A DNA stretch of 16,909 bases from a virus: UHGV virus genome UHGV-0043514; one strand, given 5' to 3'. Of this stretch, positions 6,565 through 13,314 are shown one piece after another (the stretch's first letter is position 1; every line of letters starts with the position of its first letter). A program made the position numbers and the translations under genes. Under the pieces are notes generated by a model. That model was not told the DNA's origin. It searched no databases and saw only the letters and a program-made list of their open reading frames with translations.

Positions 6565-7215
6565 TTAAGGAAGGTTTGCTAGCTTGGCATCAACGACAAC
6601 GCCAATGATTTTACAGTTCCCATTGATTTCAATCATTGGGTATTGTGGATTGAGTGGTTTCAGGAATTTTCTACCGGCATCAATAACTAACTTTTTGAAT
6701 GTCGCCTCGTTTTCTCCTTCAAGTTTGGCGACTACCAGCTTTCCATTACGTGGTTCGACTTCTGGGTCGACGAGAATAATCATCCCCTCAGGAATACTCA
6801 GTCCTGCCGGGGCAGTCATTGAATCGCCTTTAACGTCGAGCCAAAAAGAGTCTTCAGAACAATCTACCGTTGTGTCGTACCAGTTATCTATTGCACGCCT
6901 ATGATATGGCTCTACAGCTTCCATCCAACATCCTGCGCTTACCCAACTAATTAGAGGATACGAACCTCTTGGATCATGCCTGCTGTGATAGGCAATGTTT
7001 GAAAGACTATCCTCTCCTTTCAACAGGTAATCAGGGGAGCACTGCAAAGCCTTGGCTAAGGCCAATAGGTTTTCGCCATTGGGCTCAGTTTCAGATCGCT
7101 CCCATTGGGAAATAGCAACATTAGACACGCCAACCATCTTGCCAAGGGCAGCCTGCCTAATCTTGAGTTCTTTTCTGCGAGCGCGAATACGCTCACCCAT
7201 CAGTTGTGTATTCAT
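6565..7215 (-). CDS. cI: Phage repressor, P22 C2 type (216 aa): N-terminal helix-turn-helix, C-terminal LexA-like autopeptidase domain
   Basis: MNTQLMGERIRARRKELKIRQAALGKMVGVSNVAISQWERSETEPNGENLLALAKALQCSPDYLL... matches P22 C2 as recalled; catalytic-domain motifs GDSM and KLVVAKLEGENEATFKKL. Confidence 0.93.
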   Translation of the reverse strand: MNTQLMGERIRARRKELKIRQAALGKMVGVSNVAISQWERSETEPNGENLLALAKALQCSPDYLLKGEDSLSNIAYHSRHDPRGSYPLISWVSAGCWMEAVEPYHRRAIDNWYDTTVDCSEDSFWLDVKGDSMTAPAGLSIPEGMIILVDPEVEPRNGKLVVAKLEGENEATFKKLVIDAGRKFLKPLNPQYPMIEINGNCKIIGVVVDAKLANLP

Positions 7216-8190: not shown

Positions 8191-9138
8191 ATGAGCAATA
8201 CAGCAAAAATCTACGATTTCAGCGCCGCACACGAGCGCAGGAGCAACAGGATGGAGAACCAGAAAACTGGTTACATTCCGTTGTACCGGAGCATTCTGAA
8301 ACAGTCATGGGCGAAAGATGTTTATCTTCGCACCCTGTGGGAAAACCTTCTCCTGAATGCCGCCAGAAAGCCATACAAAGCGAATTTCAAAGGTCATGAA
8401 TGGCATCTGCAACCCGGTCAACTGGTTGTGACAGCAGCTGATTTAGGTCTTCAGTTATGCGACAGACATGGCAAGCCAGCAAGCCGTGATCAGGTTGAGC
8501 GGATGCTTCAGGTTTTTGTGAAAGAGGGGATGATCTCCATTGATGGAGAGAAGCAAAAAGGTCGTGTGATAACCATCACAAATTACCATGAATATGCTCA
8601 AAAAATGGACAATTTACCCGCACATGAAGCCGCACAAACAACCGCACATGATTCCGCACATGGAGAAGCCAGTAATGGCGCGGCTTTCAGCGCACATGCC
8701 GCACATGAAAGCGCACATGAAAGCGCACATGAAGCCGCACATCATGAACAAGAAGGTATTAACAAGAATATAAATAATACCCCCCTACCCCCCAATGGGG
8801 GAGGCGATGGGCAGGTTAAACCTGAACGTCGCAAGGCAGAACGAATCGACTACGAATCCTTCCTGAACGCCTACAACACCGAAGTAGGTGACAGACTGCC
8901 ACACGCTGTTGCGGTCAACGAGAAACGCAAACGCCGCCTGAAGAAAATCATCCCGCAACTGAAAACGCCAAACGTGGACGGTTTCAGAGCGTATGTCAGG
9001 GCGTTTGTGCATCAGGCCAAGCCGTTTTACTTCGGAGACAACGACACGGGCTGGACAGCTGATTTTGATTACCTGTTGAGGGAAGATTCGTTAACGGGAG
9101 TACGGGAAGGGAAGTTTGCAGACAGGGGGATTGCATGA
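8191..9138 (+). CDS. Replication initiator (lambda O / P22 gp18 functional type, 315 aa) with a repetitive His/Ala/Glu linker encoded by the iteron-like repeats
   Basis: Position immediately upstream of the DnaB-like helicase; N-terminal DNA-binding-like domain; linker [16 protein letters not shown]...[19 protein letters not shown] encoded by reiterated CGCACATGA units. Confidence 0.7.
8617..8800. repeat. Candidate replication origin: about nine CGCACATGA-type repeats at 12-bp periodicity, an AT-rich tract, and a CCCCC-AAT-GGGGG palindrome
   Basis: Repeats at 8619, 8631, 8643, 8655, 8691, 8700, 8712, 8724, 8736; AT-rich 8751-8780 (aacaagaatataaataata); palindrome 8783-8797; all inside the initiator ORF, as in the lambda ori/O arrangement. 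Confidence 0.5.
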
Positions 9139-12290: not shown

Positions 12291-12320
12291 TTGACGCGAT
12301 GATTTATCCGGGGCTATATT
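12291..12320 (+). promoter_or_regulatory. Sigma70-like promoter (TTGACG, 17-bp spacer, CTATAT/TATATT) immediately after ninE
   Basis: -35 TTGACG at 12291-12296; -10 CTATAT at 12314-12319; predicted start near 12327. Confidence 0.5.
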
Positions 12321-12381
12321 CCCAGCATGCCAGCAAAATCTGGCGTCGGGATTGGCGTCCCGGATAGAGACCGCGACAGAC

Positions 12382-12404
12382 ACACGCCGCGAGCGTGTTT
12401 TTTT
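12382..12404 (+). terminator. Strong intrinsic terminator (ACACGC-CGCGA-GCGTGT followed by T7)
   Basis: 6-bp GC-rich stem, 5-nt loop, then tttttttatt; about 75 nt downstream of the predicted start of the 12291 promoter. Confidence 0.6.
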
Positions 12405-12565
12405 ATTGTCGAATGCACGCGCACATCTGAATTATGGTGGGCTGTGTGGGGGCGGAGAGATCCGCGCCGGTCGGTTTCCCGGTTACGCCAACCCTGCACA
12501 GTTCACCACCAGACGATTGGCGTCGTCGGTGGTGAGTTATTTAGAAACCACTCGAGGGCGTCATT

Positions 12566-13246
12566 ATGACAACTCAAATCTCTGTTGAAACTCTCTCCCC
12601 GATCACCCATAACCAGATTCCTGTTATTACCACCGAACTTTTGGCGCAGCTTTATGGCACAGAAATTCTGAACATCCAGGTTAACTTCACCAGAAACAAA
12701 GAGCGTTTTGTCGAAGGAAAGCACTTTTTTAAAGCATCTGGTGAGGAATTAAAAAATTTGCGACTTACTTTAAGTAAGTCACAAAACCCCATATCTCCCA
12801 AAGCCCGCTCCCTTATCCTCTGGACAGAACGCGGAGCAGCCCGTCATGCAAAAATGCTCGAAACCGATCAGGCGTGGGATGTGTTCGAAAAACTGGAAGA
12901 CTGCTATTTCAGCGAGTGCGAGAAAAATACTGGCAAACAAGAGAAGAAGCCCAACGGGCTTTCCGCAAAAGAAACAGACATCCTTGTATGGCTGTGGGAT
13001 TATGCCAACCGCTCACAGGCATTGTTCCGTGAGTTGTATCCCGCATTAAAACTGATTCAGTCTGGCTATTCCGGCATATGCCACGACTACGGCTATGAGT
13101 TCTCGTATATCATCGGGAGGGCGAGGGGCGTTTTAATTAATCACACGCGGGATATAGATATTTATGAGCCTGACGGGCCGACGAACCTTCTGGCATGGGA
13201 AAGGCTTAAGAACAAAGAGTTGCCGCCTTCACTGCATCGCTACTGA
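12566..13246 (+). CDS. ORF6N-domain (KilA-N-related) phage regulatory / antirepressor-like protein with an unassigned C-terminal half (226 aa)
   Basis: N-terminal half ([16 protein letters not shown]...[19 protein letters not shown]...[38 protein letters not shown]) fits the ORF6N pattern as I recall it; residues from about 120 to 226 match nothing I recognise; GAGGG Shine-Dalgarno 7 nt upstream. Confidence 0.6.
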
Positions 13247-13263
13247 CAATTGACAACTTAACA

Positions 13264-13288
13264 AACCCAGCTTCGGCTGGGTTTTTTA
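13264..13288 (+). terminator. Intrinsic terminator (AAACCCAGC-UUCG-GCUGGGUUU followed by T-run), bidirectional in form
   Basis: Perfect GC-rich stem with UUCG tetraloop, flanked by an A-run upstream and T6 downstream; 18 nt after the ORF6N gene stop. Confidence 0.6.
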
Positions 13289-13314
13289 TTGCTGAATTTT
13301 CAATGTGAGAGGAC

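Follow-up and report, generated by a model that had tools for sequence, protein, structure and literature searches.

Two copies of a repeated 10-mer as very probable a1 and a2 sites of a C4-type antisense RNA module upstream of an ORF6N antirepressor gene in a lambdoid prophage

The window, by which we mean the whole 16,909-nucleotide stretch analysed (UHGV virus genome UHGV-0043514), carries a 10-mer repeated upstream of an antirepressor gene. Very probably, these copies serve as recognition sites a1 and a2 in a C4-type antisense RNA module of the P1/P7 immI kind, in which a1/b1 mimic the a2/b2 target. The 10-mer acquires this meaning because a C4 gene lies between the copies, with a segment a′ complementary to their core. 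The system is already known: the cassette is an ordinary copy of the P1 c4 / Salmonella Gifsy-1 IsrK system.

RESULTS

The 10-mer and its two hairpins

The 16.9-kb window contains the 10-mer GATTGGCGTC exactly twice, each time on the + strand: at 12350-12359 (not 12351-12360, as the earlier note had it) and at 12515-12524 (where that note had placed it). The flanks diverge and the shared stretch is limited to 10 nt. Exact string search and predicted folds agree with the former claim that the 10-mer occurs twice in hairpin loops. Each copy consists of the a site and two base pairs that close its hairpin. What is functionally repeated is a 7-8 nt core, (A)UUGGCGU; the outer G and C are stem positions that match by coincidence. 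The features around the two copies are as follows.

12347-12362, + strand: a1 hairpin, CGGGA[UUGGCG]UCCCG, holding copy 1 of the 10-mer (predicted fold and Rfam alignment)
12352-12358, + strand: a1 core UUGGCGU, counterpart of the 'a1 target site for C4 RNA' in P1 record NC_005856
12504-12534, + strand: long a2 hairpin, outer stem CACCACC (12504-10) / GGUGGUG (12528-34), predicted
12512-12527, + strand: inner a2 hairpin, GACGA[UUGGCG]UCGUC, holding copy 2 of the 10-mer
12517-12523, + strand: a2 core UUGGCGU

The nested structure described earlier for copy 2, with CACCACC and GGUGGUG enclosing the inner hairpin, was both predicted and covarying. Its 5′ arm doubles as the 3′ strand of the C4 closing stem, and 31 nt separate the end of the hairpin from the ATG at 12566. 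Folding and covariation analysis, which the earlier note had proposed as a check, showed both hairpins kept with compensatory changes in homologues. The outer a2 stem forms in 23/23 distinct homologous loci, and compensatory changes in the long hairpin include CCAUCACC/GGUGAUGG and CCGCCAC/GUGGCGG. For the inner a2 stem, 72% of cells pair versus 48% in shuffles (0/500 shuffles as high), and two of its base pairs show 8 double changes each among the homologous loci. The a1 stem keeps 4-5 of its 5 pairs in 26 of the 27 loci compared below.

Direct pairing of copy 1 with copy 2 was also considered and rejected, the copies being identical and the loop UUGGCG not self-complementary. Self-pairing is limited to GGCGUC, through wobbles, and is a property specific to this a class.

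A C4 RNA gene between the two copies

Three Rfam families match at their gathering thresholds within 12314-12513, on one strand and in the expected order: c4-a1b1 (RF03163) at 12314-12366, + strand, with 49.8 bits versus a gathering threshold of 46.7; isrK (RF01394) at 12327-12403, + strand, with 73.6 bits versus 50 and the full model covered; and C4 (RF01695) at 12430-12513, + strand, with 66.7 bits versus 45 over the full model, 1-87. The two-hairpin c4-a1b1 motif was defined by Weinberg et al. 2010. The cassette is composed of the following elements, in addition to those given above.

12291-12320, + strand: promoter-like site, TTGACG-18-nt spacer-TATATT (consensus scan, 10/12 matches)
12327-12405, + strand: short terminated RNA, predicted IsrK homologue, with hairpin 1, the a1 hairpin, b1 and a terminator
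12327-12346, + strand: hairpin 1, loop GCAAAAUC (Rfam alignment, RNAfold)
12367-12373, + strand: b1, GAGACCG, pairing 7/7 with b′ including one G.U wobble
12382-12405, + strand: intrinsic terminator, stem ACACGC / GCGUGU (12382-12398) and U run, separating a1b1/IsrK from C4 (terminator scan)
12430-12513, + strand: C4 antisense RNA gene (Rfam RF01695)
12472-12478, + strand: b′, CGGUUUC, in the loop of C4 hairpin 2, predicted 94% unpaired
12485-12491, + strand: a′, ACGCCAA, in the C4 single-stranded segment, predicted 96% unpaired
12544-12549, + strand: b2, GAAACC, pairing 6/6 with b′
12554-12558 and 12566-12568, + strand: Shine-Dalgarno GAGGG and start codon ATG (sequence, ORF list)
12566-13246, + strand: antirepressor-type protein of 226 aa with ORF6N and P22AR_C domains
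13263-13290, + strand: intrinsic terminator closing the cassette (terminator scan)

The promoter-like site aligns with the Gifsy-1 isrK promoter, and the transcription start predicted at A12327 agrees with the published IsrK numbering. Judged from its position, this site would drive an a1b1 - C4 - antirepressor transcript. The loop of hairpin 1 (GCAAAAUC) is kept across specificity classes.

Mature C4 is predicted at about 12436-12510, with ends set by homology with the 77-nt C4 annotation of P1. Its predicted fold (-44.5 kcal/mol, RNAfold) agrees with that of the family: a long closing stem, two internal hairpins and, 3′ of hairpin 2, a segment left unpaired. In the window C4, CCA (12509-12511) comes after an acceptor-like stem. 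The segment a′ is the exact complement of the UUGGCGU core in both 10-mer copies, so that it pairs 7/7 with a1 and 7/7 with a2. The a1-b1 spacing resembles that of P1 and the other loci; b2 lies 20 nt past a2 and 4 nt short of the Shine-Dalgarno, and the start-to-start distance from a2 to b2 is 27 nt versus 29 nt in P1.

The regulated gene and its prophage setting

The product of the 12566-13246 gene matches Pfam PF10543 at 2.3e-21 and PF10548 at 2.8e-23, and its N-terminal domain shares 71% identity with Gifsy-1 STM2616 (AnrP) over 118 aa. The ORF list holds no icd-like ORF between C4 and the antirepressor gene, the ATG following directly after the leader; with icd missing from the window, C4 would presumably act directly on the antirepressor gene.

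The window represents a lambdoid prophage, with the cassette in its nin region. Two features were assigned to the opposite strand.

1-1074, - strand: integrase-sized ORF (ORF list)
6565-7215, - strand: cI-like S24 repressor (Pfam / ORF list)

Other genes identified by Pfam or in the ORF list are O-like and DnaB-like replication genes, a Dam methylase and NinE, and also a Rha/KilAC antirepressor, YbcO, RusA and the antiterminator Q. Hundreds of phage records contain related sequence, as do nearly half of the complete E. coli genomes.

Covariation of the a and b sites in 27 loci

Our scan took one genome per species and used a pattern fixed on conserved C4 positions, with a′ left free. It gave 35 matches, consisting of 24 real loci (22 from Enterobacterales, one from Pseudomonas and one from a Thiodictyon MAG) and 11 chance matches in unrelated phyla. 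The 24 loci, the window, P1 and Gifsy-1 together form the 27-locus set. Six a′ variants were found among these loci: ACGCCAA, CUGUCAA, GUUCCAA, GUAGCAA, CUACCAA and GUUGCAA. They form specificity classes, in the way that P1 differs from P7. In 27/27 loci an exact 7-nt complement of a′ lies upstream of C4, at 65-117 nt, and another downstream of it, at 20-23 nt, while complements of a′ flanking it on both sides were seen in 0/11 of the chance pattern matches. The b′, b1 and b2 segments covary likewise, which results in 20 distinct a′+b′ combinations in the 27 loci. Across loci b1 is positioned 13-17 nt past a1, and b2, 8-15 nt in most of them, mostly overlaps the Shine-Dalgarno (GGAGG) or the start codon; b2 of the window is the shortest of the set (6 nt) and weaker than that of most members. 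The earlier note would have counted lack of conservation in homologous cassettes against a role of the repeat; the motif or a covarying equivalent stood at both positions in every cassette examined.

These comparisons bear on the possibility that the repeat arose by chance and has no function. The bare 10-mer repeat is indeed within chance, dinucleotide-shuffled windows averaging 4.7 identical 10-mer pairs at most 250 nt apart, and TTGGCGT occurs at four more places in the window. Examination of these four further copies as extra C4 targets in the window revealed no convincing b partner: among the TTGGCGT sites, a correctly spaced one accompanies only the two 10-mer copies. Far beyond chance is the a1 / a′ / a2 trio and its covariation between loci. 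Three Rfam families, moreover, put the copies at defined functional positions, and the complement of a′ recurs at the same two positions in the whole set and in none of the chance matches. We therefore regard a functionless chance repeat as scarcely credible.

One of the four further TTGGCGT sites, at the 3′ end of the cI-like gene, is a marginal case as regards a b partner.

A second possibility is that both loops bind one RNA-binding protein, for example Hfq or a phage protein. Rfam includes IsrK among the RNAs that bind Hfq, and identical loops on different stems resemble protein sites. The loops nevertheless come in six variants, and a′ of C4 changes with each of them, base for base, which is a signature of RNA-RNA pairing and not of a conserved protein site. 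Binding of a common protein is accordingly very improbable as the reason for the repeat, although a chaperone assisting the pairing may be compatible with the covariation. The earlier suggestion of one trans-acting factor at two loops hence holds as a general idea but not for a protein: the factor we propose is the C4 RNA encoded between the copies, which the first reading had missed.

Comparison with P1

C4 repression of icd/ant has been demonstrated in P1. The order in the P1 record NC_005856 is a1, b1, c4, a2, b2, icd, ant, and both order and spacing are the same in the window. One P1 copy of the a sequence, UUGACAG, occupies the second 5′ hairpin loop (a1), and the other (a2) comes immediately after C4 on its 3′ side; the partner of this sequence is a′ (CUGUCAA), which follows C4 hairpin 2 and is unpaired. 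The b sequence of P1, GUUAGUGA, overlaps the icd Shine-Dalgarno and pairs with the hairpin-2 loop. The two systems are also alike in the placement of a′, single-stranded 3′ of hairpin 2, and of b′, in the hairpin-2 loop, and the target is in both cases beside the ribosome-binding site of the first gene of the antirepressor operon.

The a and b sequences of the window are unlike those of P1 and represent a different specificity class, and the hairpin-2 loop and b2 are shorter than in P1. The window has neither the icd gene, which in P1 stands between C4 and ant and is translationally coupled to ant, nor the C1 operator of P1. Gifsy-1 and the loci L002, L014 and L031 likewise have no icd, so that icd is specific to P1 and not family-wide. 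The host elements differ as well, the window being a lambdoid prophage and P1 a plasmid prophage.

Comparison with Gifsy-1 and the published activation model

Among the closest known systems is the Gifsy-1 cassette isrK - STnc1160 ('orf45') - anrP, which has the same layout, the same a-site class, the 10-mer twice and the same a′, ACGCCAA. As in the window, an IsrK terminator and a C4-type RNA are present, isrK, c4-a1b1 and C4 are all recognised by Rfam, and the product of the regulated gene is an ORF6N antirepressor. Between the two cassettes b′, b1 and b2 differ, in a compensatory manner. Further differences concern the C-terminal domain of the antirepressor, which is not that of Gifsy-1 AnrP and is P22AR_C in the window; the location of the module, upstream of Q between ninE and a second ant gene in the window but downstream of Q in Gifsy-1; and isrJ, for which Rfam gives no match in the window, unlike Gifsy-1.

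In Gifsy-1, anrP translation rises more than 100-fold when short IsrK is provided in trans (Hershko-Shalev et al. 2016, PMC4825925), and a transcriptional fusion goes up 8-fold (PMC4825925). The same study showed a1:a′ pairing, with compensatory pairs G28-C162 and G31-C159 (PMC4825925). In the paper's numbering, with IsrK nt 1 placed by Rfam alignment, G28A and G31A map into the a1 core U26-U32, and the partner changes C162U and C159U map into a′ (A158-A164 of the Gifsy-1 transcript). A107, the 'orf45' start, corresponds to the AUG at the C4 5′ end. Processing of the Gifsy-1 read-through transcript yields an RNA of about 80 nt, STnc1160 (PMC4825925), and its source region is the one that Rfam calls C4. 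Constitutive STnc1160 failed to counteract IsrK in a growth assay (PMC4825925). The name 'IsrK-C4 immunity system' was given by Barquist 2013, who related it to P4, P1, P7 and N15; P1 c4 is uncited in PMC4825925.

The earlier note had envisaged small RNA-leader pairing. Control of the downstream gene in trans by the short RNA stands, as shown for the Gifsy-1 homologue. The pairing itself does not: the copies are identical, not complementary, and so do not mediate pairing between short RNA and leader; the short RNA would instead mimic the leader and compete for C4.

For activation, the Gifsy-1 authors invoke a switch in the structure of the long transcript together with translational coupling from 'orf45' (PMC4825925). 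Applied to the window, the a1 region of the long transcript would pair in cis with the 'orf45' region into a locked, inactive structure, and short IsrK in trans would displace it and open the ribosome-binding site of the ORF beginning at AUG-12434, from which antirepressor translation would be coupled; the intervening RNA would be an mRNA and not an antisense repressor. Mutations of the orf45 start codon and a stop-codon mutation cut activation in Gifsy-1, 30S binding and native-gel evidence for the structures point the same way (PMC4825925), and in the MFE fold of the complete window transcript the a1 region is likewise paired to the a′ region. The region in question nevertheless scores as C4 RNA with covariation of the RNA type, and a processed species of about 80 nt exists in Salmonella. 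The orf45 mutations fall in the C4 closing stem or at its 5′ end and may act via RNA structure. The small ORF itself varies widely: 'orf45' has 45 codons and a stop overlapping the anrP start as AUGA, whereas the ORF of the window (start 12434, 33 codons) is broken in frame and stops 30 nt upstream of the ATG at 12566, and across the 27 loci the ORF opening at the C4 AUG ranges from 3 to 416 codons. It is not a conserved gene. Since its length and end vary, the translational-coupling step of the Gifsy-1 model cannot be general. Finally, such a switch offers no reason why a2/b2 should track a′/b′ in every locus. Taken as the explanation of the repeat in place of C4 pairing, this model appears unlikely to us.

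Comparison with P4 and N15, and possible control by termination

In P4 (seqA - CI RNA - seqC) and N15 (CB RNA / antC) a processed small RNA is likewise flanked by complementary sites on the same transcript, and these RNAs were called structural homologues by Barquist 2013 and by the Gifsy-1 authors (PMC4825925). The outcome in P4 is premature transcription termination of replication genes and not translational repression of an antirepressor; the likeness is that of the published description.

Termination control of the P4 style can thus be imagined for the window: C4 bound to nascent a1/b1 would promote a stop at 12382-12405 and, bound to a2, a stop downstream, and the two copies would be attenuation sites comparable to seqA and seqC. 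The analogy with CI, seqA and seqC was drawn both in PMC4825925 and by Barquist 2013. One strand of the C4 closing stem also belongs to the a2 hairpin, a place where Weinberg 2010 pointed to possible cis-regulatory terminators. In 26/27 loci b1 is followed, ahead of C4, by a terminator-like element, and the 8-fold rise of the transcriptional fusion with IsrK in trans in Gifsy-1 would fit as well. In most loci, however, the a2 hairpin has no proper U run after it, and b2 lies over the ribosome-binding site, which points to translational control. Relief of polarity upon resumed translation is familiar from the P1 literature, and the 8-fold effect may equally be explained in this way once translation resumes. 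We give control by termination a limited chance, on the low side, as the main role of the two sites. Both this scheme and the switch proposed for Gifsy-1 are partly compatible with a C4 decoy account.

Predicted binding of C4 at the two site pairs

Net binding energies, the sum of accessibility and duplex terms that ignores kissing-loop geometry, were -6.8 kcal/mol for a1 and -7.7 kcal/mol for b1. The corresponding values in the isolated leader, where a2/b2 are predicted to be largely paired, were -2.6 kcal/mol for a2 and +2.2 kcal/mol for b2. The stronger binding of C4 predicted at a1/b1 than at a2/b2 fits an effective decoy. The weak values at a2/b2 nevertheless count against the C4 account, as do the short b2 of the window, the absence of icd, the different explanation given by the Gifsy-1 authors and the growth assay in which constitutive STnc1160 left the IsrK effect standing. 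No intermolecular pairs appeared when C4 was co-folded in RNAcofold with either the short RNA or the leader, loop-loop contacts being pseudoknotted in that model.

DISCUSSION

Following P1 and Gifsy-1, the cassette would work in the window as follows. A single promoter (about 12291-12320) would drive it as a whole. Transcripts that stop at 12382-12405 would yield a short RNA of about 77 nt carrying a1 and b1, and read-through transcripts would continue into C4 (about 12436-12510), the a2/b2 leader and the antirepressor gene. C4 would be cut out of the read-through RNA; in P1, RNase P reportedly excises C4 from its precursor, a result ascribed to Hartmann and colleagues in 1995. Folded C4 would expose b′, in the hairpin-2 loop, and a′ as single strands, and their pairing with b2 and a2 beside the ribosome-binding site would block translation of the antirepressor. 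As mimics of the a2/b2 target, a1/b1 would compete for a′/b′ of C4 and relieve the repression, in cis within the precursor and in trans as free IsrK-like RNA. Its expression and processing, and the sign and magnitude of the regulatory effect, are transferred here from the homologues, and for the window they are expectations.

Weinberg et al. 2010 credit Citron & Schuster (1990) with the proposal that a1/b1 and a2/b2 compete for C4 and that ant can thereby be expressed. The idea of competition therefore dates from 1990, and the repeat as such opens no new question. What the present comparison adds is a table of strict three-way covariation at both site pairs, and the finding that the small ORF of Gifsy-1 is unconserved.

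A broader reading may be put forward tentatively, as a possibility to which we give somewhat less than even weight. In the family as a whole, the terminated a1/b1 RNA could be a dedicated anti-antisense RNA that acts as a C4 sponge and shares one promoter with C4 and the target of C4, and the fraction of read-through would set the antirepressor switch; 'orf45' of Gifsy-1 would be the C4 RNA itself and not a gene. The terminator present in 26/27 loci, the unconserved ORF, the greater accessibility predicted for a1/b1 and the published mutations, which lie on a1:a′, are all consistent with it. Only the generalisation of the sponge as a separate RNA and the reinterpretation of orf45 would be new in this proposal. 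If it is true, the published translational-coupling model for IsrK needs revision.

For annotation, the region 12291-12565, usually given as 'hypothetical protein' or left blank in prophage records, can be read as a three-RNA immunity switch made of a decoy, an antisense RNA and a target. Such a cassette would control the antirepressor, and hence prophage induction, in a lambdoid element resembling Stx phages.

Overlap of the long a2 hairpin with C4

The C4 target site a2, located between the C4 antisense RNA and the antirepressor start codon, belongs to a long hairpin that overlaps C4 itself, as does an ORF opening at the C4 5′ end:

12504-12534, + strand: long a2 hairpin, with an equivalent position also in the homologous C4 loci L001-L037
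12434-12535: ORF of 33 codons opening at the AUG of the C4 5′ end, equivalent of the Gifsy-1 'orf45'

One strand, CACCACC, serves both structures: it is the 5′ arm of the a2 hairpin and also the 3′ side of the stem that closes C4. In the unprocessed transcript, C4 folding and formation of the long a2 hairpin therefore exclude each other. This alternative hairpin was kept with compensatory changes in all distinct loci (23/23), and a comparable remark is already found in Weinberg 2010. For the long a2 hairpin, possible roles are processing signal, attenuator and a means of presenting a2. Among homologous loci, the length of the 'orf45' equivalent varied from 3 to 416 codons; the ORF of the window appears to be a chance by-product of the RNA sequence and not a gene.

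The GGCGTC motif, capable of self-pairing via G·U wobbles, occurs four times within 12342-12562 (starts at 12342, 12354, 12519 and 12557). In the isolated leader, RNAfold predicted pairing of a2 (12518-12524) with 12557-12563, directly after the Shine-Dalgarno. This feature is common to Gifsy-1 and the window but absent from other a classes.

Upstream and downstream elements of the C4 module

The loop of hairpin 1, GCAAAAUC (12334-12341), has the same position in all loci and is almost invariant between specificity classes, whereas the a and b sites vary across them. A hairpin followed by a U run was also observed between the upstream target site b1 and c4 in P1-class loci (L001, which is P1, 8270-8345; L007-L009, L017, L020 and L033); the loops, at 10-12 nt, are unusually large. 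Judging from this arrangement, P1 may also make a terminated a1b1 RNA; no mention of such an RNA was found in the literature consulted.

The first gene downstream of C4, regulated by the C4 module, is of at least three kinds (L005, L006, L008, L009, L018, L023, L032, L036 and other loci):

Kind 1: icd-like ORFs, 63-81 aa, MATTPTQ...
Kind 2: ORF6N-type antirepressors
Kind 3: Rha-type proteins

Evidently, the C4 RNA cassette recombined with differing effector genes.

Repeats and a further a-type site in the window

Repeats of the CGCACATGAA type are clustered at 8618-8732, inside the O-like replication gene (8191-9138), and resemble the iterons of lambdoid origins. An extra exact a-type site was found in the repressor gene:

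6605-6570, − strand: cI-like repressor gene (6565-7215), stretch at its 3′ end with TTGGCGT

This TTGGCGT lies in the sense orientation of the repressor mRNA, with AAACC 21 nt further on, near the a2-b2 spacing (20 nt). The window carries seven TTGGCGT against 2.5 expected. This is probably due to chance (roughly p = 0.04, post hoc); if real, it would tie C4 to the main repressor.
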